Assembly (NCBI GenBank): GCA_040902765.1
Contig: JBBDWO010000028.1
Span: 43,946-107,945, forward strand
DNA length: 64,000 bases
Reading direction: 5' to 3'
Origin: Acidimicrobiia bacterium
GTDB taxonomy: Bacteria; Actinomycetota; Acidimicrobiia; Spongiisociales; UBA11373
Below the pieces are notes generated by a model. It had not been told where the DNA came from. It ran no database searches and saw only the letters and a list, made by a program, of their open reading frames with translations. The translations under genes were made by a program, and so were the position numbers. Of this stretch, positions 1-16,660 are shown piece after piece; positions within the stretch are counted from its first letter, which is position 1; each line of letters opens with the position of its first letter.

Positions 1-2
1 CG

Positions 3-257
3 ATGTCCAAGACGAAGGGTGGCGGTTCCACCAAGAACGGGCGCGACTCGAGGGCGCAGCGACTCGGAGCGAAGGCCTTCGATGGCCAGACGGTCAGCGC
101 TGGATCGATCCTGGTGCGACAGCGCGGGACGCGCATCCATCCCGGCGACAATGTCGGCCGCGGCCGTGACGACACGCTGTTCGCCATGGCACCCGGCGTG
201 GTCTCATACGGAACCCGTCGTGGTCGCCGCCAGGTGAGCATTCTCACCGACAACTGA
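3..257 (+). CDS. rpmA: 50S ribosomal protein L27
   Basis: 84 aa; N-terminus [16 protein letters not shown] is the canonical L27 signature; lies immediately upstream of obg. Confidence 0.9.
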
Positions 258-278
258 TCCCTGCCGACCGGAGGCCTC

Positions 279-1544
279 GTGTTCGTAGACGAGGTGGTGG
301 TCCACCTACGCGCCGGTGACGGCGGTGCCGGTGTGGTCTCATTCGAGAAGATCAAGGGTCGGCCGCGGGGCAGACCGCTCGGTGGCTCGGGTGGCCGAGG
401 CGGCGACGTGATCATCGAGGCCTCGACCGCCATGTCGACGCTGCTCGACTACATGCGCCGGCCCCATCGCCGAGCGGGCTCAGGTACCCATGGCAGCGGC
501 GACCTCCAGAGCGGGAAGTCCGGCGACGATCTCGTCCTTCCGGTGCCGCCGGGGACGGTGGTGAAGGACATCGCGGGGACCGTGCTCGCCGATCTGGCCA
601 GACCCGGGCAAAGGGTGACGGTGCTCACCGGAGGCCGCGGCGGCAAGGGCAACCAAGCGCTCTCCGGGCGTCGGCATCTCGCACCTGCGTTCGCCGAGCA
701 AGGCGAGTACGGGGCCAGTGCCGACGTGATCCTCGAACTCAAGCTGATCGCCGACGCTGCCCTGGTGGGGTTCCCCAACGCCGGGAAGAGCACCCTCGTG
801 TCCGTGGTGTCGGCGGCCCGCCCCCGGATCGCCGACTACCCGTTCACGACTCTGGAACCGAACCTCGGCGTCGTCGACGTCGATGGGCGTCAGTTCGTCC
901 TTGCGGACGTTCCCGGGCTCATCGAAGGGGCGGCAGAGGGTCGTGGGCTCGGCCACTCGTTCCTGAGGCACGTGGAGCGAGCGCGGGTTCTGGTGATCCT
1001 GCTCGATCCCTCGCCACTTCAGGAGGCGTCGTGCGAGCAGCAGCTGGTGGTCCTTCTCTCGGAGCTGGAGGCACACGATCCGGCCCTGGCCGCCCGGGAG
1101 CGTGTGGTGGCGGTCACCAAGGCCGACCTGAGTGAGGCCGCGGAGGCTCATGAGCGGCTGGGTGGGAGTGATGCGGGCATCCATCTCGTGTCCGCGGCCA
1201 CCGGTGCCGGGGTCGAGGAGCTGATGCACCGGGTAGCCGATGCCGTGGCGCGGGTCGAAGCCGACCTGCCCGACGGGGAGGGCTACATCCTGCACCGGCC
1301 CGTGATGCCGGCGTTCGACGTCCACCACGACGGCGAGCGGTGGGTGGTGACCGGCCTCGCCGCCGAGCGCGCGGTGGCCTTCGACGATCTGACCGTGCCC
1401 GGAGCCGCCGAGGCGGCGGCGAGGCGGCTGCGCTCGGCGGGCATCGACGCCGTTCTCCGGTCCCAGGGCGCCGTCGACGGCGACGAGGTGCGCATCGGCG
1501 AAGTGATCTTCGAGTTCACTGAAGAAGAGGCGAGTAGCGAGTAG
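279..1544 (+). CDS. obg: GTPase Obg/CgtA
   Basis: GTG start with GGAGG RBS; Obg-fold N-terminus (Gly-rich), G1 motif GFPNAGKST and G3 DVPGLIEGA; C-terminal extension typical of actinobacteria; the stop codon lies in the first unit of a heptamer array. Confidence 0.9.
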   Translation: MFVDEVVVHLRAGDGGAGVVSFEKIKGRPRGRPLGGSGGRGGDVIIEASTAMSTLLDYMRRPHRRAGSGTHGSGDLQSGKSGDDLVLPVPPGTVVKDIAGTVLADLARPGQRVTVLTGGRGGKGNQALSGRRHLAPAFAEQGEYGASADVILELKLIADAALVGFPNAGKSTLVSVVSAARPRIADYPFTTLEPNLGVVDVDGRQFVLADVPGLIEGAAEGRGLGHSFLRHVERARVLVILLDPSPLQEASCEQQLVVLLSELEAHDPALAARERVVAVTKADLSEAAEAHERLGGSDAGIHLVSAATGAGVEELMHRVADAVARVEADLPDGEGYILHRPVMPAFDVHHDGERWVVTGLAAERAVAFDDLTVPGAAEAAARRLRSAGIDAVLRSQGAVDGDEVRIGEVIFEFTEEEASSE

Positions 1545-1606
1545 CGAGTACCAAGTACCAAGTACCGAATACCAAGTACCAAGTACGGCTGTTGGCTGTT
1601 GGCCAC
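1530..1606. repeat. Tandem heptanucleotide array: (GCGAGTA)x3 (CCAAGTA)x2 CCGAATA (CCAAGTA)x2 CGGCTGT (TGGCTGT) TGGCCAC
   Basis: Read directly from the sequence; 11 contiguous 7-nt units starting inside the obg stop codon. Confidence 0.75.
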
Positions 1607-1623
1607 TGACCTATCCTCCACTC

Positions 1624-2490
1624 ATGGTTTTCGCGAATCCGCAAGCTGCGCTCGATGCCCTCGCCGCCCAGAAGTACCTCGCCGACCTCGCCGTCGCGCA
1701 GGTGGTGTTCCTCGCAGAGCGGCTCGACAAGCCGGTGCTCGTCGAGGGTCCCGCAGGGGTAGGCAAGACCGAGCTGGCGAAGTCCGTCGCCGCAGCGACC
1801 GGGCGACGGCTCATCAGGCTCCAGTGCTACGAGGGCCTCGACGAGGCGAAGGCGCTCTACGAGTGGAACTACCGCAAGCAGCTGCTGCGCCTCCAGGCTG
1901 CACCGGGGGAGGCGTGGAGCGAGACCGAGTCCGACATCTTCGGCGAGGACTTCCTGCTCGCCCGACCGCTGCTCGAGGCCATCCGATCGCCGGAGTCCGT
2001 CGTTCTGCTCATCGACGAGGTCGATCGCGTCGAGGTGGAGACCGAGGCCCTCATGCTGGAGCTGCTCGCCGACTTTCAGGTGTCGATCCCCGAACTGGGC
2101 ACGATGACGGCGACGACCAGACCGGCGGTGTTCCTCACCTCGAACAACACCCGTGAGTTGTCGGAGGCGCTCAAGCGGCGATGCCTATACCTGCACATCG
2201 GGTATCCCACGATCGAGCGCGAGCAGGAGATCCTGCACGCCAGGCTGCCCGGGCTCGATGAGCGTCTCGCCGAGCAGGTGGCCCGGTTCGTCGCCGGGCT
2301 CCGCTCCATGCCGCTGCGCAAGCCCCCGTCGGTGAGCGAGAGCCTCGACTGGGCTGCCGCACTGCTCGCTCTGGGCGTGGCTGTGCTGGACGACTCGGTG
2401 GCCGCCGACACCCTCAACGTGCTGCTCAAGCACCAGTCCGACATCGACATCGTCGCCAAGGAGCTCGGCGCCGACCTCACCGAGACCTGA
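1624..2490 (+). CDS. MoxR-family AAA+ ATPase (CbbQ/NorQ/CoxD-like)
   Basis: Walker A GPAGVGKTE, Walker B LLIDEVDR and sensor region; the architecture and length (288 aa) fit the MoxR CbbQ/NorQ subgroup. Confidence 0.8.
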   Translation: MVFANPQAALDALAAQKYLADLAVAQVVFLAERLDKPVLVEGPAGVGKTELAKSVAAATGRRLIRLQCYEGLDEAKALYEWNYRKQLLRLQAAPGEAWSETESDIFGEDFLLARPLLEAIRSPESVVLLIDEVDRVEVETEALMLELLADFQVSIPELGTMTATTRPAVFLTSNNTRELSEALKRRCLYLHIGYPTIEREQEILHARLPGLDERLAEQVARFVAGLRSMPLRKPPSVSESLDWAAALLALGVAVLDDSVAADTLNVLLKHQSDIDIVAKELGADLTET

Positions 2491-3920
2491 TGCGTTTTCT
2501 CGTCGACTTCATCGGCGAGCTGCGCGAGGTGGGGATCGGCGTGTCGATGGTGGAGGCGGTCGACGCGGCCGCTGCTCTCGACCACATCGACCTTCTCGAC
2601 CGGGATCAGGTTCGGGCGACGCTCGCCGCAACGCTGATCAAGTCCTCCAGACACCTGGAGGCGTTCGACATCGCTTTCGATGCCTTCTTCGCCACGCGAC
2701 CTCGACCCTTCGACGGTCCCGAGTCACAGGGTGCCGAACCCCCGGCCGGTGGATCAGCGGGATCGGGTGGCATCGGTGGTGGGGGCACCGATGACGACAC
2801 CGACCTGATGGAGGCGCTGTTCCGGGCCGTGGACGCCGCCAACGACGACTTGCTGCAAGCGGTGGTTCGGGCGGCGGTCGGGCGCTTCGGGGGCATGGAG
2901 TCGGGTCGCCCGGTGGGTGGCACCTACTACGCATATCGGGTGGCCAGGGGCCTCGATCTCGACGCCTTGCGTCGTCGGCTCGAGGCGGTGGGTGAGTCGG
3001 ATGGCGAGTCGGCCCTCGATCGGCGACTCCGCCTTCAGGAGGTCGGGCGGGTCGTCGAACGGCTGCGCGACATGATCCGCCGGGAGATCACCCGCCGGCT
3101 GGTCGCCGACCGCGGCCATCTGCCGGTGGCGAAGACCATGCGTCGCCCGCTGGCCGAGGACATCGACCTGACCACGGCGACGCGTGACGACCTGCAGCGC
3201 ATCGAACGCGCCGTTCAGCCACTGACCAGAAAGCTGGCGGCCCGGGTGGCCAGGCGCCGGCGTACCGGCCTCGAGGGCCGCCTCGACGTGAGGCGAACCG
3301 TCCGACGATCCCTCTCCACCGGTGGGGCGCTCGCCGAGCCCCGGTTCCGAAAGCCGCGGCCGGGCAGACCCGACATAGTCGTCCTCGCCGATGTGAGCGG
3401 TTCGGTGGCCACGTTCGCCCGCTTCACCATGCAGCTGGTTCACGCGGTGTCGTCGCAGCTACGGCGGGTACGCGCTTTCGCTTTCATCGACGCCATCGAC
3501 GAAGTCACCGGTCACTTTCGTCCCGGGACCGACCTCGCCGCGGCGATGGCCCGGGTCGGCACCGAGGCCAGGGTGGTGTGGGTGGACGGCCACTCCAACT
3601 ACGGCCATGCCTTCGCCCAGTTCGTCGAACAGCATCTCGGGGCGGTGACTCCGACCACCACGGTGATCATCACCGGCGATGCCCGCACCAACTATCACGA
3701 CCCCCACACCGAGGCGCTGGCGACGATTGCCTCACGAGCGCGGGCCGTCTACTGGCTCAACCCCGAGGATCGGCGCTACTGGGACACCGGGGACTCCGTC
3801 ATCGGGCTCTATGCGCCGCTGTGTGAGGCCGTGTACGAGGTGCGCAACCTGAGGCAGTTGGAACGCTTCGTCGAGACGATCTCGGTGCTGCGGCGGGACC
3901 CGGCCCGCGTGGTCGCGTAA
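2490..3920 (+). CDS. VWA-domain protein (CoxE/NorD/CbbO-like partner of MoxR)
   Basis: C-terminal VWA with MIDAS-like DVSGSV motif (IVVLADVSGSVATFARF); TGATG start/stop overlap with the upstream MoxR gene. Confidence 0.75.
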   Translation: MRFLVDFIGELREVGIGVSMVEAVDAAAALDHIDLLDRDQVRATLAATLIKSSRHLEAFDIAFDAFFATRPRPFDGPESQGAEPPAGGSAGSGGIGGGGTDDDTDLMEALFRAVDAANDDLLQAVVRAAVGRFGGMESGRPVGGTYYAYRVARGLDLDALRRRLEAVGESDGESALDRRLRLQEVGRVVERLRDMIRREITRRLVADRGHLPVAKTMRRPLAEDIDLTTATRDDLQRIERAVQPLTRKLAARVARRRRTGLEGRLDVRRTVRRSLSTGGALAEPRFRKPRPGRPDIVVLADVSGSVATFARFTMQLVHAVSSQLRRVRAFAFIDAIDEVTGHFRPGTDLAAAMARVGTEARVVWVDGHSNYGHAFAQFVEQHLGAVTPTTTVIITGDARTNYHDPHTEALATIASRARAVYWLNPEDRRYWDTGDSVIGLYAPLCEAVYEVRNLRQLERFVETISVLRRDPARVVA

Positions 3921-3941
3921 GACTCAAGGTATCGTTGGGGC

Positions 3942-4364
3942 ATGACGATGAAAGGGTCTCGTCGCGAAAGGAACGACACCGTGACCCAGCGTGTGCTCGT
4001 CGTAGAAGACTCAGCCGTCATTCAGAGGCTGATCACGGTTTGCCTGCGGCCGGCCGGGGTCGAGGTCGAGACGCGCGACGACGGACCCACCGGACTCGAG
4101 GCAGCCATCGAACACCTGCCCGACTTGATCATTCTCGATGTCGGTCTTCCGCGGATGGACGGCTGGGAAGTCCTCGAGCGGATCCGCGCCGACGAGCGCA
4201 CCAAGTCGATCAAGGTCCTCGTCCTCACCGCGCATGCTCAGGAAGAGACCCGCGAGCGCGCCGATCGTGGCGGTGCCGACGCTTTCCTCACCAAGCCATT
4301 CCGCCCCGACGATCTCCGAGGCGTGGCTCTCGACCTTCTCAGCGACCTCGTCACGACCGGCTGA
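3942..4364 (+). CDS. Single-domain response regulator (CheY-like receiver)
   Basis: REC fold: VLVVEDS, phospho-acceptor Asp in LIILDVGLP, conserved T (VLTA) and K (TKPF); no output domain; no histidine kinase nearby. Confidence 0.75.
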   Translation: MTMKGSRRERNDTVTQRVLVVEDSAVIQRLITVCLRPAGVEVETRDDGPTGLEAAIEHLPDLIILDVGLPRMDGWEVLERIRADERTKSIKVLVLTAHAQEETRERADRGGADAFLTKPFRPDDLRGVALDLLSDLVTTG

Positions 4365-4371
4365 CACCACC

Positions 4372-4803
4372 TCAGGCGACCAGGGCAAGCCCCTTCGCCG
4401 GAGCCAGCCGAGCGCACACCCGCGTCGGATCGACGTAGAGCCCTCCCACCCGCACCGACAGATGAAGTGCGGGAATCCCGCGGTCCACTCCCGTTGCTCC
4501 TACGACCGTCGCTCGGTCGACCCGCTGCCCAGCCGTCGTCAGGAGTGACGACAGATAGGAGTAGGAGCTCCGTACCGCCCCGCCGTGATCGACGGTCACA
4601 CTCGCACGGCCGGCGACCATGCCGGCGAAACTGACCACACCGGGAGCGATCGGCCGAACCGGCGTCCCTTCGGGCACCGCCAGGTCTATGCCCCAGTGAC
4701 CTCCGTAGGCGCCGACGGGAGCAAAGGGTCTGATCATCGGGCCGTCCACCGGCGGGGTGAACAGGCACCACGACAGGGCGAGACCGGCGACGAGTGCCGT
4801 CAT
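4372..4803 (-). CDS. Secreted M23/LytM-domain peptidase (possibly degenerate HxH)
   Basis: Signal peptide MTALVAGLALSWCLF; M23 motifs HWGIDLAVPEGTPV and a C-terminal LHLSVRVGGLYVDP that should be HLH, so one His is missing; start chosen at the ATG that precedes the signal peptide. Confidence 0.6.
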   Translation of the reverse strand: MTALVAGLALSWCLFTPPVDGPMIRPFAPVGAYGGHWGIDLAVPEGTPVRPIAPGVVSFAGMVAGRASVTVDHGGAVRSSYSYLSSLLTTAGQRVDRATVVGATGVDRGIPALHLSVRVGGLYVDPTRVCARLAPAKGLALVA

Positions 4804-4888
4804 CCACCGACCGTATACCGACGGCACCGACGATTCCAGGGGGTCCGGGTGTCTCAGATCGCGCCCCGCGGTCAGTAACCTGCTCCGG

Positions 4889-5458
4889 ATGCGCCGCGGC
4901 ATTCTCGGTGGGACATTCGACCCGCCACACATGGCTCACCTGGTGGCCGGGGAGACGGCGCGCCAGCAGCTGTCCCTCGACGTCGTCACCTTCATGCCGG
5001 CGGGTGCACCGTGGCAGAAGGCGGCGCGGGCGGTGACGGAGCCGCGTCATCGGTGGGAGATGACGCTGCGGGCCGTCGAGGGCATCGACTACTTCGAGGC
5101 GGACGACCGCGAGATCCGCCGCGATGGCTGGACGTTCACCATCGATACCCTGCTCGAGTTCGCCGACGATGACGTGGTGCTCATCCTCGGCGCCGACGCC
5201 GCCGCCGGCCTCCCCACCTGGAACCGGGCCGACGAGGTGGCGCAGCGGGCCACCATCGCAGTGATGCCTCGGCCCGGAGTCGAGCGAGCGGCCGTGGACA
5301 TTCCAGGCGGACGGGTCGTGTGGCTGGAGGCCCCCGAGCTGGCCCTGTCGGGGACGCTGCTTCGTGCCATTCGCGGCGAGGGGAGAAGCGTCCGGTTCCT
5401 CGTGCCCGAGGCGGTGTTCGCCTACATCGAGGAGCACGGGTTGTACCGAGCCTCCTAG
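4889..5458 (+). CDS. nadD: Nicotinate-nucleotide adenylyltransferase
   Basis: GILGGTFDPPHMAHL (HxGH-type nucleotidyltransferase motif); start moved to the ATG preceding the motif. Confidence 0.85.
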   Translation: MRRGILGGTFDPPHMAHLVAGETARQQLSLDVVTFMPAGAPWQKAARAVTEPRHRWEMTLRAVEGIDYFEADDREIRRDGWTFTIDTLLEFADDDVVLILGADAAAGLPTWNRADEVAQRATIAVMPRPGVERAAVDIPGGRVVWLEAPELALSGTLLRAIRGEGRSVRFLVPEAVFAYIEEHGLYRAS

Positions 5459-5508
5459 CACTGCGCCGCCACTTCTCTAGGATTGGCTTGGACCCGTCAC
5501 GCGGAGGA

Positions 5509-5886
5509 TTGCCCATAGCGCTCCACGAGGAGACCTCAGATTTCGTCGCCAGAGCGGTCGCCGCACTGGACGACAAGAAGGGCATCGACGTCCTCGTCCT
5601 CGACGTGTCAACGCTGATCGTGGTCACGGATGCCTTTGTCATCGTCAGTGGCACTTCCCGACCCCACATCCAATCGCTTGCCGAGGGCGTAGAAGAGGCA
5701 CTTCGAGCGGTCGACCGCCGCCCCCTCCGTCGCGAGGGCGCGGACGAGACTCGCTGGGTCCTCCTCGACTACGGCGACTTCGTGGTCCATCTCTTCGATC
5801 AGGACACCAGGGAGTACTACGCCCTGGCACGGCTGTGGTCGGATGCCCCGCGGGTGGAGTTTCCCCTCGGAGTGGTAGCGGAATAG
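5509..5886 (+). CDS. rsfS: Ribosomal silencing factor RsfS (Iojap)
   Basis: KKGIDVLVLDV...YGDFVVHLF RsfS core; TTG start after RBS GCGGAGGA; conserved nadD-rsfS adjacency. Confidence 0.8.
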   Translation: MPIALHEETSDFVARAVAALDDKKGIDVLVLDVSTLIVVTDAFVIVSGTSRPHIQSLAEGVEEALRAVDRRPLRREGADETRWVLLDYGDFVVHLFDQDTREYYALARLWSDAPRVEFPLGVVAE

Positions 5887-5947
5887 GCCCGTCGCCTTTC
5901 CTCGGGGCGGTCGGCACCGGGCAATCGGGGGATACAATCGCTGACTC

Positions 5948-6020
<73 letters not shown>

Positions 6021-6026
6021 CTTACA

Positions 6027-6051
6027 AGAACCCTTGCGCTGCAAGGGTTCT
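6027..6051 (+). terminator. Perfect hairpin AGAACCCTTGC-GCT-GCAAGGGTTCT just after tRNA-Ala
   Basis: 11-bp stem with 3-nt loop, read from the sequence. Confidence 0.5.
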
Positions 6052-6180
6052 CGGTCTTGTGAGTGCGCCGCCGAGCGCCGGGCTGTCCGTCTACTGTCCG
6101 TCTGAGGTGGCGGACGCTCTCTGAACAGCTCGGGTGGGACGGTTTCCATCCGCTTCGACAATGTGAGGAGGGAAGGGGAC

Positions 6181-6447
6181 GTGAGGCAGCTTGGAACCGC
6201 ATGTCGCGTCTTGGCGATCTCGCTCGTCCTCGGAGGCTGCGGGCAGCCGATCGACGGCCTGGATACGGGCACGACGGCTACCGACGTGCCGTCGTCCGAG
6301 GCGACCATCGAAACCCTAGCAAGCGTGTTCGCGAGCTGTTCGGAGCCGCCCGATCCTGCCGCCGACGCGTACAGCTTCATCGCCGCGACCCAGGGTTGGC
6401 TTAGGGTTGATGCGGTGCTTAAATGCCAATCGGAGACCCGAAGGTGA
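6181..6447 (+). CDS. Hypothetical lipoprotein (islet)
   Basis: GTG start after GAGGAGGGAAGGGGA; lipobox LVLGGC; no recognisable domain. Confidence 0.45.
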   Translation: MRQLGTACRVLAISLVLGGCGQPIDGLDTGTTATDVPSSEATIETLASVFASCSEPPDPAADAYSFIAATQGWLRVDAVLKCQSETRR

Positions 6448-6652
6448 TGCCCCGACGCCCACTGCGATATTCAGGCTTGCCGAAGCCAAAGGCACGGGAG
6501 AGGCTCTCGAGGGTGCCGAGCAGGGAGTTGTCGACGCCGTCGTGCACAGCTCGTATTGGAAAGGCATTGATTGGGCCCTCTCCGAAGGCGCTGACGTGAG
6601 GGCCGTGACGGGAGGAAGGCGTCATGCCGCTGCACGTGGAGGAGGTCATGTG

Positions 6653-8011
6653 ATGTCGATACCCTGGCGTTCGCTCTCATCCAGCCGGATGCCCCTCGCC
6701 GCAGCCGCTCTGACCCTGCTCTCGCTCGCGCTAGTGAGTACGCACGATGCGCAGGCTTCTGATACTGCCGCTATTGACTACTACATCGAGAGTCAACCTC
6801 GGGTTGAGGTAGGCGCCGAGCCGCTGTGCGGCGTGTCCGACGACTCCCACCTGCTAGCCGGTGCTACGGAGACCGAGGCTGGCCACTTCTCGCACGAGGA
6901 TTGGATAGCTAACGAACGGGCTCAGGAAGACGTGAATCGGGTTCACGGCATATTGGCGAATCTCCCGCGAAGCAAGAGCCTGGACGGCAACACCACACCC
7001 GAAGAAGAAACCCTTGCATCGCGGCTGTCACAGGGGGTGGTTGGGGTTACCCACGACAACGTGACGCAGCAGTTCATCATTGTGGTCGATGCGACCGTGA
7101 TTGACATGGAGGGCCTGAAGACCGACTTGGCGGTCCTCGAAAGTGAGCTCGATATCGACATTCAGATCCGACCGGGCTGCCACAGTATCGACGACCTTGC
7201 CCGCGCCGAAACCGTGCTGCGCGGCCGTGCGTGGCACGCCGACGCCAGCAAAGCTACGTACGGGTTTTATGTGGATCCCGCGACAGCTACGTTCAACGTC
7301 ACCCTCTCCCCTGAGAACCGGGCACTAGGCGATGCGCTCGGCGAAACGCTTGGAGAGTTGGTTACTATCGAGTACGGCGAGCCGTCGCGTCGCGGACGCC
7401 TCAACGACGGCGAACCTCACTACGGTGGTGCCGGAATCGGGACGTTGAACAACAACTTCTGCACATCAGGCTTCACCATCGTGAAGAGCGGCGCTCGGGG
7501 CTCGGTGACTGCAGGGCACTGCTACAGCAACGGCACGAGCGTTTACTCGGGTCCGCAGTACTACGGATACAGCACCGGCAAGGCGAGCTTCCCTACGTAC
7601 GACATGATCCGAATCGCCTCGAGCGTGGAAACGTATGCCAACAAGATCCACGTCGATCCCTGTTGCCCGTCCGTTCGTACAGTTGTGAGCGACGCTGATA
7701 CGCAAGTTGACAACTACGTATGCGTCAGCGGCATGGTTACCCGTGCCGTGTGCGGACTCAGGGTTGTCTCGATGAGCGGCGAGCTGTGCGACGCACTCGG
7801 ATGCACACCGAACCTGGGAATTGCTGAGGACCCAGCAGGACGCACGGTAGGTCAGGGCGGCGACTCCGGGGCGCCCATCTACACCAGATGGTCCAACAAC
7901 CGAGCGCAGATTCACGGCATGGAGATCGGTGGAACCGCACCAACAAACGTCTACTTCCACAAAATCTCCCGGATGGAGAGCATCTTGGGGATGAGCGTGG
8001 CACACTCCTAG
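6653..8011 (+). CDS. Secreted S1-family serine protease with alpha-lytic/streptogrisin-like prodomain
   Basis: GGAGG RBS; signal peptide MSIPWRSLSSSRMPLAAAALTLLSLALVST; catalytic His in TAGHCY and Ser in GDSGAP; about 190-aa pro-region; codon usage visibly lower GC than the flanks. Confidence 0.8.
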   Translation: MSIPWRSLSSSRMPLAAAALTLLSLALVSTHDAQASDTAAIDYYIESQPRVEVGAEPLCGVSDDSHLLAGATETEAGHFSHEDWIANERAQEDVNRVHGILANLPRSKSLDGNTTPEEETLASRLSQGVVGVTHDNVTQQFIIVVDATVIDMEGLKTDLAVLESELDIDIQIRPGCHSIDDLARAETVLRGRAWHADASKATYGFYVDPATATFNVTLSPENRALGDALGETLGELVTIEYGEPSRRGRLNDGEPHYGGAGIGTLNNNFCTSGFTIVKSGARGSVTAGHCYSNGTSVYSGPQYYGYSTGKASFPTYDMIRIASSVETYANKIHVDPCCPSVRTVVSDADTQVDNYVCVSGMVTRAVCGLRVVSMSGELCDALGCTPNLGIAEDPAGRTVGQGGDSGAPIYTRWSNNRAQIHGMEIGGTAPTNVYFHKISRMESILGMSVAHS

Positions 8012-8292
8012 TGGTCCGTCGTACGTCGCGGAATCGGGGACCGAGGTTAGGAGGCTCGGCGGCGGCGGACCATGGCGATGATCTCTTCGGCGGTCTTGTG
8101 CCAGACCAACGGTCTGGGTTGTCGTTTCAGCGTTCGCCCCACAGTTCGATGGCGCCGATCGGCCTGTGCACGGAGCGGAACGAGTCGCGGCGGGGACGTC
8201 GAGTGGTGCGCTCACCGGAACCACCACGCCCGAACTGGTCGCGCAGCGGGTACTTCATTGATGCACTAAGATCACCTCGCGCCGCCACAGGA

Positions 8293-8706
8293 GTGTTTGT
8301 GCGCGTCTTGGTCGCCATGGTGCTGGCTACGATCCTGCTGACAGCCTGTGGTACCAACGAGACTGAACCTGACCGTGTGACGGCCATCGACGGAGCCGTC
8401 GACAACAGTGACGAGAGCACAGGAACCGTAGCCGAACGGACCAAGCCCGACCCGCCTCCGCCCTCACACCAGTGTACCGAGGCTGCGCTTGAGGACCTTC
8501 TTCGCCGAGTCACCGATAGAGGATGGACCTCCCGTCCCAACGAGGTGGCATTCGGAGCTTTTGTCGAGTTGTCCTTGTGCCGAGTTGTCGTGCAAAGCGA
8601 CTCCTTCACGCCAGATGAGACGCAAGCCCTCGCTGATCTCGACCCCGATGGCCGTGTTCTCGTTGAGCATACAGACGGCCCGGTCGGCAGGCGGGTGGGC
8701 GGGTAG
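8293..8706 (+). CDS. Hypothetical lipoprotein (islet)
   Basis: GTG start after AGGAG; lipobox ILLTAC; Pro-rich linker; no known domain. Confidence 0.5.
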   Translation: MFVRVLVAMVLATILLTACGTNETEPDRVTAIDGAVDNSDESTGTVAERTKPDPPPPSHQCTEAALEDLLRRVTDRGWTSRPNEVAFGAFVELSLCRVVVQSDSFTPDETQALADLDPDGRVLVEHTDGPVGRRVGG

Positions 8707-9016
8707 ACCAGTCACCTCACCGTCCGACTCAGCCACATCAAGCACCCGGAACCCCTCTAAACCCACGAGCGCCTTGAACCTCGGCCGAGCCGATACCGTT
8801 GACTGCCATCAGGGGCCTCCCTCCTCCGTCCCCTAGCCGGGGGGCAACCTCGCTCAGCGTCCTGCCGAAGTCTTCGGGTCCTGCCGATCGCCACCGAGGT
8901 GACTCGCTCAGCACCTTGGACGGCGACGGCGGGACGCTCAAGCTCTAGGTTGAGTCCCTCCCTGTAGCTGAGGAGGATGCTGTGGCTGCGAGCGATGGCC
9001 GAAGAGGCGCTGAGCT

Positions 9017-9568
9017 TCACGCCGCCAATAGGTCTGGTCCGGATTTGGTCCGCGAGAGATCAGAAAACACCCCCAGAGGACGCAAGTGGTTCATAGCGAA
9101 AACCCCAGTGATCATGGGGGAATGTCGCAAGACCACCCAGTTCTCAGGATCGCCGCAGCTGATTTGTAATGTTCGTTCAGCCTCCGGTGCCCTTGTGACG
9201 ACAAATCCGCTTGCGCCGAGAGGAGAGGCGGGAGCGGGTCGGCTCTCGGTACCATGTCGATTGAAGCGTCGAGAGCTGTGGCTTTCGAGGAACGTCACTA
9301 CGAGCGTGTGGAAGACGCTGGGCCGTAGCTCTCGGGCATGGATCACGGCGATGCCGGGGTGGGTTCCCGGCGAGTAGCGCCCGACGTCTGCGAGGCCTCG
9401 ATCGAGGGTCACGAGCATCCGGTCGTCGGAAGCGGCTAAGAGGGCCAGTCGGGCGTCGGGGACACCGACCAGGCTCTCCTCAGGCACCGTGCTCACATCG
9501 TGTCCGCGCTCCCGGAGCAGCTCGACAGCCCGGGTCGGGATGTTCTCGTCGGCTTTGAGCTTCACCAA
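9017..9568 (-). CDS. DUF5615 (PIN-like, Mut7-C) protein with anomalous C-terminal extension
   Basis: N-terminus (TTG start) VKLKADENIPTRAVELLRERGHDV matches the DUF5615 family from memory; the ORF runs about 75 aa past the usual domain end. Confidence 0.55.
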   Translation of the reverse strand: MVKLKADENIPTRAVELLRERGHDVSTVPEESLVGVPDARLALLAASDDRMLVTLDRGLADVGRYSPGTHPGIAVIHARELRPSVFHTLVVTFLESHSSRRFNRHGTESRPAPASPLGASGFVVTRAPEAERTLQISCGDPENWVVLRHSPMITGVFAMNHLRPLGVFSDLSRTKSGPDLLAA

Positions 9569-9599
9569 AGGGGGAGCGGGAGCACGTCCTCACTGGCGA

Positions 9600-9795
9600 G
9601 TGCTGCAAGGTGGCCGCCGCCCGGATGCCCTCGACCGTCAACGTCGGATACTCGTCGAGGATCTCTGCCTCGGTTATCCCCCTCAGCCAGGCACCCGAGC
9701 ACGAGGCTCACAGGGATTCGCGTACCCCGGATGGGCGCTTGGCCGTGCAGTACCTCCGGGTCGACGGCGATGAGCTCCAGCTCCTGATCGGTCAC
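9600..9795 (-). pseudogene. DUF433 (antitoxin-like partner of DUF5615), disrupted by +1 frameshift in a G5 run
   Basis: Frame A gives IAVDPEVLHGQAPIRGTRIPVSLVLGCLAEG; a different frame gives ITEAEILDEYPTLTVEGIRAAAT (canonical DUF433 C-terminus); the frames switch at the minus-strand GGGGG run at 9678-9682. Confidence 0.5.
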
Positions 9796-9985
9796 TTGGA
9801 GGAGCGCAAAGGCTTGCCCGCTCGATTCGGCTCCTCGGGACGGTCCCGCAAGGGCGGAGGTGTCCGCGAGGTGTCCGCGAGACAACCGAAAACGAGGGAA
9901 TCTGACCACAAGCTCCGAACACTGAAATCCCTTACAGCACAAGGGATTTCTCGAAATCCTCCAGGTCGGCGAAACCCCCTGATTG

Positions 9986-10033
9986 TGCATGGCATGCAAG
10001 AGGTCAGGGGTTCAAATCCCCTCAGCTCCACTT
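9986..10033 (+). repeat. 48-bp direct repeat of the tRNA-Ala 3' end (attR-like); partner at 5986-6023
   Basis: TGCATGGCATGCAAGAGGTCAGGGGTTCAAATCCCCTCAGCTCCACTT is identical at both sites. Confidence 0.8.
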
Positions 10034-10154
10034 CGTCTGACCTTTCACAGCGTTCGCTGCCTTCCCGGCATCGAACGCTGTCTCGGTTCGTCGCCGTGTC
10101 GGGTGCTAGGTCAGCACCCGCTCCAATCCAGCCAGTCGGGGCTCGTATCGGGCC

Positions 10155-12794
10155 TTACCGTTCCACCTCGCCCACGAAGTTGCTGTACATGCCCATGCCG
10201 CAGTTGACCATGTACAGGACGGTGCCTTGTGGGTCCATCGCCATGGCGTAGGTGTAAAGGTGGGCTCGCCACGCCACCAGGCCCTTCGTGGCTAGCTCCC
10301 AGCTCTGACCACCATCGGGCGAGTGCCAGATACTCTCACTGTGCTCGGTGAAATAGACGTGCTCCGGCCGGGTGGGATCGATGATTAGATTCTCGATCCA
10401 GACGTCGCGGCGGAGGCGCCGCCAGCTTTCACCGCCGTCGTCGCTGCGGTACAGGCCGTCGGTCTCGTCCCAGTCGCCCCTCCCGTAGAACGACAAGGTG
10501 CCGGCGTAGACGACGTTCGGATCGGTCGGATGGGCAGCGACCACATACACGTACGGGTTGTCCAGAGGCGCGCTCGCCGCCCAGCTCAGACCGCCGTCGA
10601 CTGATCGGTACACGCCGTGGCCCATCACTGCGAGGTAGATGACGCGCGGATCGGCCGCGCTCAGCGAGATTGACGGGATCGGCGCGTCGGGAAGGCCGTC
10701 TACGTGTAGCCACGACGCTCCGCCATCCGTCGAGCGGTACAGACCGGTGCCGTGGTAGACGTAGTAAAATCTGCTGCTGCCGGTCCCCGCATACATGCGA
10801 TCCGGGTCATCCGGGTCAATGGCAAGGCTGATGATCTGCCGGTCGTCCATTCCGACGCTCGAGAGTTCCCAGCTCTGGCCAGCATCGGTCGACCGGTACA
10901 CACCGGTGAGGTTCGAAACGAAGACCGTGTCGGGCCTGTCCGGTCGGATGGCGATGTCCGTGATCTCATCCGGCGAGCCACCGACGCCGAGGCGCGTCAG
11001 CACGCTCCACGTATCCCCACCATCAGTCGTGCTGGATACATAGCCGTGACCGTGCCCTACGTACACGATCTCGGGGTCGCCGGGGTGAACCGCCACCGCC
11101 GTGGAGAGATCACCCACGAAATGCATGTGGGGCTGTGCCCAGGACCTACCCCCGTCGGTCGAGATGAGGATGCCCTCACCTCGCAGGCCGGCGTAGATCC
11201 GGTCCGGGTCCTCAGGGTCGATGGCCAGAGCATCCACCGAGCCAGGAAGGTCGCTGATTTCCTCCCAGTGGGCGCCGCCGTCGCGGGTACGCTGGATGCT
11301 GCCAAAGCTCGACGCGTACAGAACCAGCCGGTCGGCGGGTGACATGACCACGCCCTCCACCCCGTCTAGGATGGGTCCCCAGTTGCGCCCTCCGTCCGTG
11401 GTCTTGAAGAGCGGCCCGCCCCAGTAATGCTCGCGGGCGTACACGACCAGAGGGTCGACAGGGTCGACGATCAGCACCTTGATCAGCACGTCACCCAGGC
11501 CCCCGCTGGCCTCGGCCCAGGTCGCGCCGGCATCGTCACTGCGCCAGACACCCCCGGCACCGCCGGCGTACACGACGTGCGGCTGACTGGCAGCGATGCG
11601 CACCGCGAAGACCGAGCGATTGCCCAGGCTGAGCTGCTCCCAGGTGGCACCGTCATCGATGGTCAGGTAGACACCGTCCTCGGCGTTGGAGTGTTGCGGC
11701 GCCTCTGATGACCCGATGGCGACGTACGCGGTGTGCGAGTCCTGCGGGTGGACGGCGAAGGCGTTCACATGCCCGGACCCACCCGGCCGCATCGCCGACC
11801 AGTGCTCACCGCCGTCGCTGCTGCGCGAGCCACCTCCATCCTCGAGGTGGCCGAGATAGAGCACCCGACCATCAGAGGGAGCGATCTCGACCCAGGAGAC
11901 CTTGTTCTTGATGAGCCCACCGGCGTGACCGAGCTGCTCCCAGTTGACGCCCCGATCCCGCGAGACGTAGAGGCCGGAGTGGCCGGTCCCCGCGTAGACG
12001 TTGGACGGGTCGGTCGGATCCACCACGATCGTCGTGACCATCGCGCCCTCCGGCCCGTTGGTCCTGGTCCAGGTCTGCTCCGGGTGGAGCAGCGCCGTGA
12101 CCTCGACGTCGTCGAACAAGGCTTGTCCGCCTTCCGGTAGGTCCAGGCCGATCGAGCCCTCCAGGCGGGCGTCGGGGGCAGGGTCGCTGTGCTCTATCAG
12201 GGTCTGCCCGTCGACGGTCACGGTGAGCCGCGGCCCCTTTCCCGTCACCTCCAAGACGCGCCAGTCCGCCGACCGGGCTAGCGGCGCGCTGGCCAGCACC
12301 TCGGCAGAGCGTCCGTCGGGCGAAGCCTCGAGGCGCCGGAGCTGTAGCTGGTCGCCGGTGAGCGCCACCTCATAGGCGCGTACCTCGTGACCGTCAGCGT
12401 AACCAAACCAGTGGGCGCGATAGTGAATGCGAGCCTCACCGGCCAGGAGCAGCACACGGAGTCGCAGCGTGGAGTCTCGCCAGTAGTCGCCGAAGCGATA
12501 GCGGGCCCGCCCTGGTCCCCCGGCGGACAGGGAGTCGTTCTCCACCACGAAAGTGGAGGGCAGCACCCAATCGTCGGCCCAACCATCCTCGAAGTCCTCG
12601 AGGTAGTAATCCGGGTCGAGCGCCGCGGACCATGGACCCGACTCCGTCGGCTCGGGTTCGGCGGAACCCCGGGGCGGCGAACTGCTCGACGTCGGTGGCA
12701 GCGGATCCGACCCCGGCGTGTCCGGCGGCGGTGCCTCGACACAGGCAGCAGCGACCAAGCCGACCGTGACCAATACCCTCAGGGCGCACCGCAT
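10155..12794 (-). CDS. Secreted multi-BNR/Asp-box repeat protein with N-terminal LamG/DUF1080-like jelly-roll
   Basis: Lipobox-type signal MRCALRVLVTVGLVAAAC; at least 10 S-x-D-x-G-x-[ST]-W repeats (STDGGRSW, TDGGRNW, SDDAGATW and others); sortilin/Ycf48/GH74-like architecture. Confidence 0.75.
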   Translation of the reverse strand: MRCALRVLVTVGLVAAACVEAPPPDTPGSDPLPPTSSSSPPRGSAEPEPTESGPWSAALDPDYYLEDFEDGWADDWVLPSTFVVENDSLSAGGPGRARYRFGDYWRDSTLRLRVLLLAGEARIHYRAHWFGYADGHEVRAYEVALTGDQLQLRRLEASPDGRSAEVLASAPLARSADWRVLEVTGKGPRLTVTVDGQTLIEHSDPAPDARLEGSIGLDLPEGGQALFDDVEVTALLHPEQTWTRTNGPEGAMVTTIVVDPTDPSNVYAGTGHSGLYVSRDRGVNWEQLGHAGGLIKNKVSWVEIAPSDGRVLYLGHLEDGGGSRSSDGGEHWSAMRPGGSGHVNAFAVHPQDSHTAYVAIGSSEAPQHSNAEDGVYLTIDDGATWEQLSLGNRSVFAVRIAASQPHVVYAGGAGGVWRSDDAGATWAEASGGLGDVLIKVLIVDPVDPLVVYAREHYWGGPLFKTTDGGRNWGPILDGVEGVVMSPADRLVLYASSFGSIQRTRDGGAHWEEISDLPGSVDALAIDPEDPDRIYAGLRGEGILISTDGGRSWAQPHMHFVGDLSTAVAVHPGDPEIVYVGHGHGYVSSTTDGGDTWSVLTRLGVGGSPDEITDIAIRPDRPDTVFVSNLTGVYRSTDAGQSWELSSVGMDDRQIISLAIDPDDPDRMYAGTGSSRFYYVYHGTGLYRSTDGGASWLHVDGLPDAPIPSISLSAADPRVIYLAVMGHGVYRSVDGGLSWAASAPLDNPYVYVVAAHPTDPNVVYAGTLSFYGRGDWDETDGLYRSDDGGESWRRLRRDVWIENLIIDPTRPEHVYFTEHSESIWHSPDGGQSWELATKGLVAWRAHLYTYAMAMDPQGTVLYMVNCGMGMYSNFVGEVER

Positions 12795-12940
12795 CAGCCG
12801 ACCCGTCGCCTCAGGTGGGCGAGGCGGACCGTGAATCCCGGTCATGACACGACCCTACACCCCTGCCCTCGAGCCAGCAGTAGAGGGGTGGTTCGAGCCT
12901 CTTTGAGCTGGCCGGTCGCAACGCCTCGGCCGCCCGTCAC

Positions 12941-13684
12941 ATGCAGGTGTTGCAGCTTGCGCGCGGTGCAATGATGGGCGGCGCGCCCGCCCCGTCACCG
13001 CCGAGCGGGTTCGCCGGAACGCTCTGGAGCGGGATCGCCGCGCCGTTGGAGCGGCCGCCCCTGGTGATTGCGCCGCCCGCCATCCCGGAGCAAACAGGGC
13101 CGCCGGACTGCGTGGTCACCTCGACGGCGCACTCCGGTGCCGGGTCGCTGCGCCAGTGCCTCGTCGGCGCGGGATCCGGGGATGCCGTGGGCTTCGACCC
13201 GGCCCTGTTCTCGCGTAACCAACCCGGGATGATCCGCCTCCAGGGCGCGCTGCCGCTCGACAGCGGCGTCACCGTCGACGGCGCAGGCGGCGTCGTCCTC
13301 GACGGTGGCGGGACCGCTGGCACGAGCTTCACGTTCGTCACAGACGGCGGAACGACGGGGGTGACCATCCGTGGGCTACAGATCCGAGGATTCCAGATGG
13401 GCCTCTTCGTCAGCGGGGGCGGCGGCCACACGATCGAGGGCAACGTGATCGGCGGCAACGTCTTCGATCTCACGCTGGCCGTGACAAGCGGTAACCGTGT
13501 CGCTGGGAACTACGTCGGCCTCGATGCGACGGGGACGAAGCTCGCCTACGACCCCGGCTCGCCGCAGCCCCTGTCGAACACGAGCTCTGGTCGGTCGTCC
13601 GATCTCTCGAGCTGTACCACCCGAAGGATGGATGTGTTCCGGCCGCAGATGGGCGACGCGACACGCGGCGACAGCGTTCTGTAG
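12941..13684 (+). CDS. Right-handed parallel beta-helix repeat protein fragment (CSLREA-like N-terminus); probably truncated or pseudogene
   Basis: GSLRQCL motif and repeated G-N-x-I/V-G-G-N beta-helix rungs; no signal peptide; low-complexity nonsensical tail. Confidence 0.4.
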   Translation: MQVLQLARGAMMGGAPAPSPPSGFAGTLWSGIAAPLERPPLVIAPPAIPEQTGPPDCVVTSTAHSGAGSLRQCLVGAGSGDAVGFDPALFSRNQPGMIRLQGALPLDSGVTVDGAGGVVLDGGGTAGTSFTFVTDGGTTGVTIRGLQIRGFQMGLFVSGGGGHTIEGNVIGGNVFDLTLAVTSGNRVAGNYVGLDATGTKLAYDPGSPQPLSNTSSGRSSDLSSCTTRRMDVFRPQMGDATRGDSVL

Positions 13685-13701
13685 GTTGGGTCTCACCGGA
13701 G

Positions 13702-14973
13702 GTGGATGTGAGACCGACCACGCCAACCGGGCGGTTATGGGGAGTCGCTGTCGCTCTCGGACTCATCGCCGCCTGCGGCGGGCCCGGTTCCGCCGAGGAC
13801 ACCACGACCACCTCCTCCTCTGCCACTACCAGCACGACCTCGACCACCACCACGACGACGACTACGACGCTGCCGCCGACGACGACGACCACGCTCCCGC
13901 CGGTGATCCCGGTGGTGGGGTGGGACATCGAAGGTGTCCGGACGGTCTCGGTGGAGATCGAGTTCAACTATCCGGAGCATTCCGCGGAGCTCCACAGCGT
14001 TGTGGACCGGGCGCTGCGACAGATCGGACTGACCCCCGGCCGAGATGCTGACGCCGAACTCAGCTTCGACCTCGAGGGGACGGGGATATCGGCTCAGTAC
14101 ACCAACGTGGGCCGTTGCTACACCGGGGCCCGGCTGCGCGGCACCGCCCACCTGACCGCCGGAGGGTTGCCCGACCTGCGAGCGTCGATCGATGGCAACA
14201 TGCCCACCCCCGGCCTCATCTATGAGCACGAGTGCGGGAGCGATGCCGTGGACGCGCCGTTCGACGACGCCTTCGACGTGGCTTTGATCGGCGCCATGAC
14301 GGCGTTGTTCGGCCCGGCCTCGGTGCCCCACCTTTCCGAGGTGGTGAGTCGGTTCTATGATGGCGACCCCAGCCGGACGGCGATAGAGGCCTATCGGCGC
14401 CTGGACTACGACGCTATCCCGATCTTCCGCCAGTACGAGTTCCTCGACGCGGTGCTGGGGTCCCTCGTCGGCGCGGTCCAGTATCCGACCTCGGACGCCT
14501 ACATCCGTGTCGCCCGGAGTGTCCTCCTCGACTATTCCCCCACGGACTTCGGGTTCTCCGATGCACAGGACCTCGAGGCGTGGGGTAGCTGGCTGGTGGG
14601 CTGGGCGGCGGAGCAAGCCACCTCGACCGATGCCACGAACGTACGCGGCCTGCGGGTCGGTGACTGCCTGAACGACAGGCCGTTTTCGAAAACTTCGGTG
14701 GTCAAGGTTTCGTGCGCCGATCCACACGACCGCGAGGTCTACTTCGCCTTCGACCTGGCCGACGGGCCCTACCCCGGAGAGTTCGCTCTGGAGGAAGCCG
14801 CCTGGGGCCGTTGTTTGGATGTCTTTGACCTGCTGTTCGGCTCAGGTTCGGAACTGTGGGTGGGTCTATTGACGCCGACGGAGGCGACCTGGGCTCTGGG
14901 CGACCGCACGGTTCACTGCGCAGTTGGCGGTGACGAGCGGACTGTTGGCTCCGTCCTCAGTGGTGACGATTGA
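13702..14973 (+). CDS. Lipoprotein with poly-Thr/Ser linker and Cys-containing C-terminal domain (septum-formation-like?)
   Basis: Lipobox LIAACG; run of about 35 Thr/Ser residues; C-terminal VGDCL...VSCADPH...C...C pattern resembles Pfam Septum_form, from memory. Confidence 0.55.
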   Translation: MDVRPTTPTGRLWGVAVALGLIAACGGPGSAEDTTTTSSSATTSTTSTTTTTTTTTLPPTTTTTLPPVIPVVGWDIEGVRTVSVEIEFNYPEHSAELHSVVDRALRQIGLTPGRDADAELSFDLEGTGISAQYTNVGRCYTGARLRGTAHLTAGGLPDLRASIDGNMPTPGLIYEHECGSDAVDAPFDDAFDVALIGAMTALFGPASVPHLSEVVSRFYDGDPSRTAIEAYRRLDYDAIPIFRQYEFLDAVLGSLVGAVQYPTSDAYIRVARSVLLDYSPTDFGFSDAQDLEAWGSWLVGWAAEQATSTDATNVRGLRVGDCLNDRPFSKTSVVKVSCADPHDREVYFAFDLADGPYPGEFALEEAAWGRCLDVFDLLFGSGSELWVGLLTPTEATWALGDRTVHCAVGGDERTVGSVLSGDD

Positions 14974-15068
14974 CCGTCGAGGCACGCGGGCCCTCCCGCC
15001 GGGCGCTGGTGTCGCGCCCGGCGTGACGACCGAGCGTGCCGCACTCCCTCGGTCCGTAATATGAGGGA

Positions 15069-16628: not shown

Positions 16629-16660
16629 CCCTACGCGGTTCCCGGGTACCCCTGATCTGG

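Follow-up and report, generated by a model that had tools for sequence, protein, structure and literature searches.

The locus raises the question of why genes for a MoxR AAA+ ATPase and a VWA protein, followed by an orphan CheY-like receiver, sit among housekeeping genes between obg and nadD, and which client protein they serve. A preliminary description took the three genes for a triad inserted into the otherwise conserved obg to nadD-rsfS block. We consider it probable that the ATPase-VWA pair is instead a CoxD/CoxE-type module which was inherited vertically and pre-dates the split between Acidimicrobiia and Actinomycetes, and that the receiver gene and a neighboring M23 gene are a separate addition. 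The window, meaning the whole 64-kb stretch of DNA that was analyzed, is itself ordinary and combines housekeeping genes with this clade-specific receiver/M23 addition.

The upstream anchor of the conserved block is obg (279-1544, plus strand; Pfam GTP1_OBG, MMR_HSR1, and DUF1967), and its downstream anchor consists of nadD (4889-5458) and rsfS (RsfS domain at approximately 5545-5886), both on the plus strand and identified by Pfam and NCBIfam models. A scan of positions 1-6500 for promoters and terminators returned none on the plus strand from obg to the end of the receiver gene, so that the operon limits are putative.

The ATPase gene (1624-2490, plus strand) encodes a 288-aa protein, soluble by hydropathy, which consists of a single AAA+ module of the class size of approximately 290 aa. 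A Pfam scan gave matches to AAA_5 (2.9e-13) and AAA (3e-12), both above threshold, and the protein carries Walker A (GPAGVGKT, residues 42-49), Walker B (VLLIDE, 127-132), and sensor-1 (TSN, 172-174) motifs. Aligned with the true CoxD encoded on pHCG3 of Afipia (Oligotropha) carboxidovorans, it shows 54% identity along its entire length (274 aligned residues, E = 1e-98), and these results bear out its earlier placement in the CoxD/NorQ class of MoxR ATPases. The top matches among PDB sequences were AAA modules from midasin, together with NorQ. The stop codon of the ATPase gene overlaps the start codon of the VWA gene (ccTGATGcg, 2488-2492), in agreement with the translational coupling described before, and the VWA gene directly adjoins the ATPase gene in all of the best 80 of more than 600 matched loci. 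The two genes are a real pair, and their Walker and MIDAS motifs are intact and invariant over 23 homologues.

The VWA gene (2490-3920, plus strand) encodes a CoxE-type VWA/MIDAS adaptor of 476 aa, and its earlier description as CoxE-like is supported by a match to PF05762 VWA_CoxE over residues 240-458 (5e-47; 160.6 bits, cut-off 26.4). The protein begins with an N-terminal domain (residues 2-67) which forms four helices in a structure model, followed by a disordered Gly-rich linker (69-101), a helical middle region (101-276) with a GRPVGGxYY motif at residue 139, and the VWA domain (295-465) containing the MIDAS motifs DVSGS (301-305), DGHS (366), and TGDA (395). The MIDAS residues D301, S303, S305, D366, and D397 are unchanged in the 23 homologues. 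In a Foldseek search of the PDB, the VWA fold was nearest to AAA-partnered MIDAS domains, with weak E-values, and a profile of the protein found no match among PDB sequences. The protein stops 18 residues past the VWA domain, and an effector domain is absent.

Among NCBIfam models, MadB (NF047784) and MadC (NF047783) scored highest for the ATPase and the VWA protein, respectively, MadC covering the VWA part only. These labels were dropped, as the scores of 320.9 and 159.8 are far lower than the cut-offs of 475 and 600. The true CoxD and CoxE as well as the proteins from Tsukamurella and plasmid pYLL1 likewise score low on both models, and none reaches the cut-off. A search for the meaning of "Mad" in these model names returned only lantibiotic, fungal, and malonate "Mad" genes from the searchable literature.

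The genomic context of the pair was surveyed in the best 80 of more than 600 matched loci, all 80 of which belong to Acidimicrobiia. Most of the long loci have rpmA-obg upstream and rsfS downstream, and in 36 of 59 loci proA precedes the pair on the same strand, in 29 of them with no gene in between. The order in locus L081 is rne-rplU-rpmA-obg-proB-proA-AAA-VWA-receiver-nadD-rsfS-leuS, with overlapping stop and start codons. The preliminary description had expected relatives to show obg followed directly by proB or nadD; many of the 80 loci instead have the pair beside proA and upstream of nadD-rsfS. The order proA-AAA-VWA-nadD-rsfS-His_Phos also occurs in Tsukamurella, Nocardia, Rhodococcus, and Gordonia. 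Orthology across the two classes was judged from synteny together with rough neighbor-joining trees, which for both proteins place the actinobacterial pairs apart from true CoxD/E and agree with class taxonomy. Streptomyces, Nonomuraea, and Rhodococcus plasmid pYLL1 also have members of this group, but these lie outside the proA slot and have no recurring neighbor. Judged by gene order and sequence, the pair has long belonged to the proA–nadD–rsfS housekeeping operon by vertical inheritance and is not an insertion, being itself part of the conserved block in both Acidimicrobiia and Mycobacteriales, and its slot between proA and nadD-rsfS would be older than the split between Acidimicrobiia and Actinomycetes. 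Ubiquity at this position and a known client nearby had been named beforehand as signs against the insertion reading; the former was found for the pair, the latter was not.

The closest parallel is the proA-linked pair of Mycobacteriales, represented by Tsukamurella WP_068523204/WP_068739385 with homologues in Nocardia, Rhodococcus, and Gordonia. It occupies the same slot (proA-AAA-VWA-nadD-rsfS), its proteins are of similar size (291-300 and 471-502 aa), 53% and 33% identical to those of the window, and alike in the domain order of the VWA protein, and it falls in the same clade as the window pair relative to true CoxD/E. Unlike the window, Mycobacteriales have neither the receiver nor the M23 gene, the middle region of their VWA protein has no conserved GRPVGGxYY motif, and in Tsukamurella two SRPBCC genes separate proA from the ATPase gene. 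A reading of these SRPBCC genes as CoxG-like was rejected, as only generic Polyketide_cyc models matched. We take the Mycobacteriales pair to correspond to the two "conserved hypothetical" genes Rv2426c/Rv2425c of M. tuberculosis, between proA (Rv2427c) and nadD (Rv2421c). A homologue of Rv2426c is documented in the literature as "ATPase AAA". The searchable literature reports no function for the Mycobacteriales pair and no experimental study of any member of the orthologous group of proA-linked pairs, the role of which seems not to have been asked about so far. At least two actinobacterial classes that diverged deeply have thus retained a CoxD/CoxE-like remodeller within the proA-nadD-rsfS operon, and to judge from gene position, so have relatives of important pathogens.

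In A. carboxidovorans, CoxD and CoxE act in maturation of the [CuSMoO2] cluster of CO dehydrogenase (PMC3471820, PMC4240915). The window pair shares with them the two-gene architecture of adjacent or overlapping genes, membership of the VWA protein in PF05762, the MIDAS motif, and a homologous N-terminal 4-helix domain (36% identity to CoxE over residues 2-70, E = 3e-07). In contrast to CoxD/CoxE, it forms a separate clade and is not located beside coxMSL, coxF (XdhC), and coxG, and its VWA protein is 77 residues longer than CoxE, contains the extra helical middle region, and has a VWA domain of only 29% identity. Because CoxE lacks this middle region of approximately 100 residues, the client specificity of the two systems probably differs. 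NorQ/NorD, which inserts FeB into cNOR (PMC9976466; PDB 9qh4-9qhg), is more remote: NorQ belongs to another MoxR subfamily (CbbQ/GvpN/NorQ) and resembles the window ATPase only over about 50 residues (E = 1.6e-06), the NorQ/NorD client is a membrane enzyme, and the genes lie in the nor operon.

By analogy with NorQ/NorD, CbbQ/CbbO, and CoxD/CoxE, the two products of positions 1624-3920 would work together as a remodelling (chaperone) module of the CoxD/CoxE type that is driven by ATP. In this working model the ATPase would assemble into a hexameric ring, to which the VWA domain would bind through its MIDAS face. The client would be gripped by the N-terminal 4-helix domain together with the helical middle region specific to the family, and ATP hydrolysis would loosen the folded client to allow completion of its metal or cofactor site. 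This client is presumably encoded outside the window, in line with the earlier remark that none lies nearby, since tblastn with CoxM, CoxS, CoxL, CoxF, and CoxG as queries gave no match in the 64 kb. The best candidate for the client class, put forward tentatively and with less than even confidence, is a molybdenum hydroxylase of the xanthine-oxidase (XOR) family, because a CoxL-like gene follows the receiver gene in six related loci. This gene encodes an XOR-family large subunit (Ald_Xan_dh_C and MoCoBD_1/2 domains, IYRGAGR motif) and lies directly after the receiver in four of the best 80 of more than 600 genome loci (L001, L015, L028, where it occupies 9887-12151, and L041) and on two metagenome contigs (L103 and L110). 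The XdhC/CoxF partner, CoxM, CoxS, and CoxG are all absent from the loci with this gene, and most loci, including the window, have no XOR-family gene nearby. A conserved pair with a lone CoxL-like molybdenum hydroxylase subunit as candidate client class makes for a tractable genetics question in Rhodococcus, Nocardia, or mycobacteria.

The receiver gene (plus strand) encodes 140 aa if translation starts at ATG 3942 or, more likely, 127 aa from GTG 3981, in both cases ending at 4364. The GTG is preceded by AAAGGA 9 nt upstream and gives the length called in the closest relative; the gene calls in L084, L085, and L081 are 127-130 aa. The protein matches PF00072 (1.4e-26, 93 bits), the domain occupying residues 18-126, and has no output domain. 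In an alignment of 17 orthologues and CheY, E22/D23, D66, T96, and K118 correspond to D12/D13, D57, T87, and K109 of CheY, and all five positions are invariant. The receiver is phosphorylatable, presumably by a kinase encoded elsewhere: the search for a partner histidine kinase covered the 64-kb window, where a phmmer comparison of kinase and receiver sequences with all ORFs of at least 80 aa and a Pfam scan of 28 larger genes found neither a histidine kinase nor a second receiver, and the label of orphan receiver stands.

Between the receiver gene and nadD, and convergent with the former, lies a gene on the minus strand (4372-4803) that the preliminary description overlooked. It encodes a secreted M23/LytM-family peptidase-like protein of 143 aa from the Met at 4803 (PF01551, 1.4e-16), and the gene call in L084 is likewise 143 aa on the minus strand. 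HWGID is kept, and the usual HxH is replaced by ALH here and by AVH in L085 (the L028 row was left out of the motif alignment); the protein is possibly a degenerate LytM factor with a regulatory role. The M23 gene is on the plus strand in 27 of 29 metagenome contigs and is inverted in the lineage of the window. Inverted repeats sought around the inverted gene amounted to matches of 10-11 nt, which is at chance level.

The receiver and M23 genes are a lineage-specific addition confined to one Acidimicrobiia clade, and would have arisen there as a two-gene unit (3981-4364 and 4372-4803) between the VWA gene and nadD. Of the 18 informative loci in this clade, 17 carry the receiver gene behind the VWA gene. 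The receiver is lacking in Mycobacteriales and in roughly 60 further Acidimicrobiia loci, and among the best 80 of more than 600 matched genome loci, M23 matches are confined to those with a receiver. On receiver-centered contigs the M23 gene immediately follows the receiver in 29 of 31 informative cases and is separated from it by one gene in the remaining two (31/31 within one gene), and 23 of 29 contigs have the VWA gene on the upstream side. The receiver is thus more tightly linked to the M23 gene than to the VWA gene.

These counts bear on the proposal that ATPase, VWA protein, and receiver form one triad in which phosphorylation of the receiver gates the remodeller, with the receiver binding, for example, the VWA adaptor or the ring. 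The receiver gene starts 21-60 nt past the VWA stop codon on the same strand in approximately 80-95% of clade members, with no terminator-like site between them, and this tight adjacency may still reflect a functional link. The receiver is also better conserved than the VWA protein (87% versus 60% in L002), its phospho-acceptor site is intact, and L008, a locus outside the clade, has another pair with a different receiver (39% identity) behind it, along with an 1824-aa Ser/Thr-kinase/STAND/TPR/GAF/PAS/HisKA-HATPase protein, an arrangement which would represent a second, independent association with a receiver. However, the pair occurs without a receiver in most Acidimicrobiia and in Mycobacteriales, and in 6 of 29 contigs close receiver orthologues sit directly after obg or proA with the pair absent from the locus; because each thus occurs without the other, the triad is not an obligate unit. 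With M23 as the receiver's steadier neighbor, phosphorylation-gated control is weakened, and we regard the triad as an unlikely reading.

A second proposal is that the pair is a bacterial midasin-like remodeller acting on the large ribosomal subunit, where its AAA_5 ring and MIDAS domain would place or remove a factor together with Obg and RsfS. Gene order alone argues weakly for this, as the conservation of the block has causes that do not involve the pair, and the resemblance to midasin is general to MoxR/VWA pairs. CoxD is far closer in sequence, and the CoxL-like gene is the sole recurrent neighbor outside the housekeeping genes, so that this role appears quite improbable. The fuller version, that the proA-linked pair is the prokaryotic counterpart of midasin on the large subunit or on its silencing and assembly factors RsfS and Obg, with which it would have shared a transcript ever since the ancestor of both Acidimicrobiia and Actinomycetes, and that in the clade of the window the receiver ties its activity to a signal, is in our judgment very improbable.

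By analogy with M. tuberculosis MoxR1, which is reported to assist the cell-wall hydrolase RipA (PMC4810496), the M23 protein itself could be the client, the pair aiding folding, metallation, or export of a secreted zinc protein. The M23 gene is no more than two genes from the pair throughout the receiver clade, but it is younger than the pair, has a far narrower distribution, and is retained in loci that lack the pair (L101, L102, L107, and L117), and MoxR1 belongs to a different MoxR subfamily, which leaves this idea with hardly any likelihood. Finally, a vWA-MoxR-type NTP-dependent conflict or anti-phage system, as had been suggested and for which derivation from CoxD-CoxE-like ancestors and a common 4-helix N-terminal domain speak (Kaur, Burroughs, Iyer and Aravind 2020, PMC7159879), is extremely unlikely here given that PADLOC returned no significant match to any MoxR/VWA defense model (only weak generic P-loop and receiver-domain matches), that the effector and the VMAP/iSTAND third component are absent among neighbors consisting of obg, receiver, M23, and nadD, and that the pair has a housekeeping-operon location, a class-congruent phylogeny, and normal composition across 1500-4500.

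The window differs from most relatives in the absence of proB-proA between obg and the ATPase gene, which the preliminary description missed; proBA was not found in the 64-kb window. Where relatives have proB-proA or another gene, the window has an array of short tandem heptamers (1531-1603, no assigned strand), seen on reading the sequence and with Tandem Repeats Finder, which comprises about eight copies of CGAGTAC/AGTACCA followed by 2.4 copies of GGCTGTT and runs from the end of obg across most of the spacer of 79 nt before the ATPase gene. Positions 1532-1668 are not alignable with L084, in which identical heptamers closely follow obg in inverted orientation.

The window carries, on its + strand, rpmA (3-257), obg (279-1544), genes for a 288-aa AAA+ ATPase (1624-2490) and a 476-aa VWA protein (2490-3920), a receiver domain protein (3942-4364), nadD (4889-5458), and rsfS (domain ~5545-5886). 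The gene reading, Pfam matches (with NCBIfam for nadD and rsfS), and the TGATG overlap of the ATPase stop with the VWA start (ccTGATGcg, 2488-2492) bear out the ATPase, VWA, and receiver genes of the preliminary description, which did not include a minus-strand M23 peptidase-like gene at 4372-4803 (coordinates from the Met preceding a signal-like segment). ATG 3942 is a possible start of the receiver ORF, but GTG 3981 is more likely, as AAAGGA lies nine bases upstream of it and the resulting 127 aa are as called in the closest relative, genome locus L084. There is no break in GC content or skews across 1500-4500, and a consensus scan of the + strand from obg to the receiver end found no promoter and no terminator, which is compatible with read-through from obg without proving it.

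A protein search with the VWA protein returned more than 7000 homologues, the named organisms among the best matches being Acidimicrobiia. Scanning one genome per species gave more than 600 matching stretches, of which the best 80 loci were studied. All 80 are from Acidimicrobiia, and in every one the ATPase gene lies directly upstream of the VWA gene. The longer of these loci have rpmA-obg 3-6 kb upstream and rsfS 1-7 kb downstream, and proA precedes the ATPase gene on the same strand in 36 of the 59 loci with enough flank (directly adjacent in 29). Pfam-annotated locus L081 (59% VWA identity) reads rne-rplU-rpmA-obg-proB-proA-AAA-VWA-receiver-nadD-rsfS-leuS, with overlapping obg/proB and proA/AAA junctions.

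The same arrangement is found in Mycobacteriales. Tsukamurella tyrosinosolvens has the order proA-SRPBCC-SRPBCC-MoxR ATPase-VWA protein-nadD-rsfS-histidine phosphatase-...-comEA-comEC, and homologues of its VWA protein occur throughout Tsukamurella, Gordonia, Nocardia, and Rhodococcus. Nocardia farcinica, a Rhodococcus, and Gordonia rhizosphera show proA-AAA-VWA-(0 to 2 small genes)-nadD-rsfS-His_Phos with overlapping junctions. The feature noted earlier is real, but its position is ancestral: the claim that the pair was inserted between obg and nadD is contradicted by the proA-AAA-VWA-nadD-rsfS order common to Acidimicrobiia and Mycobacteriales, the Mycobacteriales gene order being decisive. 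In neighbor-joining trees of both proteins, true CoxD/E fall outside a single clade that holds all these actinobacterial pairs, and within that clade Acidimicrobiia split from Actinomycetes. The simplest reading is a single ancient acquisition with vertical descent thereafter. The feature is ordinary, a known kind of pair at its ancestral position, and represents an uncharacterised chaperone pair retained within a core operon in two or more actinobacterial classes. In Mycobacterium tuberculosis, the interval between proA (Rv2427c) and nadD (Rv2421c) includes Rv2426c and Rv2425c, which have the same sizes as the pair and are presumably its counterparts. The one retrieved support for this match is a table listing an Rv2426c homologue as "ATPase AAA", and no functional study was found in the literature searched.

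Most Acidimicrobiia have proB and proA in the interval from obg to the ATPase gene, and in Mycobacteriales the two lie upstream of the latter. The window and loci L002, L003, and L085, by contrast, have obg directly before the ATPase gene, and both pro genes are absent from the whole 64-kb window. In L084 (89% VWA identity), an unrelated 761-aa gene takes their place between obg and the ATPase gene. The obg-ATPase spacer of the window (1531-1603) holds a heptamer tandem array, with ~8 copies of CGAGTAC/AGTACCA and then 2.4 copies of GGCTGTT; the array could be the scar of a rearrangement or a site bound repeatedly by a regulator. The same heptamers occur in opposite orientation in L084 (6675-6700), right after obg and beside the 761-aa gene that the window lacks.

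The receiver is a complete CheY-like domain without an output domain. Its E22/D23, D66, T96, and K118 align with CheY D12/D13, D57, T87, and K109 and are invariant in 17 orthologues. When gene context is mapped onto a neighbor-joining tree of the VWA proteins, 17 of the 18 informative loci in the window's clade have the receiver behind the VWA gene; ~60 other Acidimicrobiia loci and Mycobacteriales lack it. Scanning metagenomes with the receiver recovered 35 contigs that encode a receiver at least 70% identical to it. The VWA gene lies directly upstream in 23 of 29 informative contigs; the other six have no pair there, and the receiver follows obg (L101, L102), proA (L107, L117), or unrelated genes (L111, L124). 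Downstream, the M23 gene is next in 29 of 31 informative contigs and one gene further, behind a CoxL-like gene, in the remaining two. Since M23 is near the receiver in 31/31 contigs and, among the best 80 genome loci, M23 matches are limited to receiver-bearing ones, the two travel together as a single clade-specific addition. The frequent and tight adjacency of receiver and pair speaks for the phosphorylation-gated control proposed previously, which we nevertheless regard as doubtful; either can occur without the other.

Because the M23 gene runs in the reverse direction in the window, L084, L094, and L095, it need not be co-transcribed with the receiver. In the window it is convergent with the receiver (7 nt between stops), opposite to its orientation in 27 of 29 related contigs. 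The protein may be a non-catalytic LytM-type factor, as it keeps HWGID but has ALH in place of HxH. Outside the receiver clade, the Acidimicrobiia locus L008 (9634-15507) has a VWA gene followed by a different single-domain receiver (39% identity), whose stop is overlapped by the gene for an 1824-aa protein with Pkinase, AAA_16 (STAND), TPR, GAF, PAS, HisKA, and HATPase_c domains. This single case hints that receivers may recur beside such pairs.

The family types named in the preliminary description were correct. The ATPase matches Pfam AAA_5 and AAA, has intact Walker A, Walker B, and sensor-1 motifs, and lacks a membrane segment. Aligned over 274 residues, it shows 54% identity to CoxD of Afipia (Oligotropha) carboxidovorans pHCG3, a reference identified via a plasmid search together with the cox cluster annotation. 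The VWA protein matches PF05762 (VWA_CoxE, 160 bits); its N-terminal ~70 residues are 36% and its VWA domain 29% identical to CoxE, but ~100 extra residues separate these two parts. Modelled with AlphaFold2 from 23 homologues (mean pLDDT 71.6), it is predicted to have four helices in its N-terminal domain (2-67), followed by a disordered Gly-rich linker (69-101), then a long helical stretch in the middle (101-276) and a Rossmann-like VWA domain (295-465). Among NCBIfam models, "MadB" and "MadC" ranked highest, but at 321 and 160 bits the two proteins fall well short of the required 475 and 600, and equivalog membership was rejected. Genuine CoxD/E and further relatives reach comparable values on these models, and a literature search did not reveal the meaning of "Mad".

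Domain content, motifs, coupling of both genes, and antiquity of the pair are what the analysis shows. By analogy with NorQ/NorD (PMC9976466) and general MoxR-vWA logic (PMC7159879), the ATPase would form a hexameric ring on which the VWA domain would sit via its MIDAS face, the N-terminal region of the VWA protein would pick the client, and ATP would drive loosening of the folded client, allowing completion of a metal or cofactor site. In a PDB sequence search with the ATPase, midasin AAA modules and NorQ were the top matches. Operon context and fold resemblance would suit a ribosome-linked, midasin-like role, but this resemblance is common to all MoxR/VWA pairs, and such a role is improbable.

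As to the client, six loci of the receiver clade (L001, L015, L028, L041, L103, L110) carry, directly after the receiver, a 750-760-aa gene whose product is 34-37% identical to CoxL and combines Ald_Xan_dh_C, MoCoBD_1, and MoCoBD_2 domains with an IYRGAGR motif. It is the sole recurrent non-housekeeping neighbour, in agreement with the role of CoxD/CoxE, which finish the Mo-Cu site of already folded CO dehydrogenase (PMC3471820, PMC4240915). No coxM, coxS, coxF, or coxG was found nearby in these loci, and the gene is absent in the 64-kb window and most loci searched. Because the subunit is lone and so often missing, a molybdenum hydroxylase is a tentative best guess, which gives the pair a testable client candidate. 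The M23 protein, by comparison, is an unlikely client, the pair being much older than the M23 gene. The suggestion of a conflict system is contradicted: the locus has no effectors, third component, or significant PADLOC matches, and inheritance is vertical. The lone XOR-family large subunit of these six loci (L028: 9887-12151) is form-II-like in its IYRGAGR motif, and in L028 two tandem GAPDH-like genes, encoded on the other strand, come after it.

Just after rsfS, the window has a tRNA-Ala(GGC) gene (5948-6021), and an exact copy of its last 46 nt lies 4 kb further on (9986-10031), the signature of a putative element integrated into the 3' end of the tRNA gene (6022-10031). The element has lower GC (0.59-0.64), with no integrase seen in it, and contains a 534-aa ORF (6407-8011) with a GDSGAP serine-protease motif and no Pfam match, and a DUF5615/PIN-like gene (9017-9568, minus strand). 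It forms part of a 10.7-kb stretch (6022-16689) without counterpart in the otherwise collinear L084, where rsfS and the znu genes lie within ~0.7 kb. The rest of this stretch encodes an 896-aa BNR/Sortilin-repeat protein, a Septum_form-domain protein, and an alpha/beta hydrolase. Further downstream, an IS110-family transposase (DEDD_Tnp_IS110 and Transposase_20; 44003-45103) lies between uppS and glyS in housekeeping surroundings.
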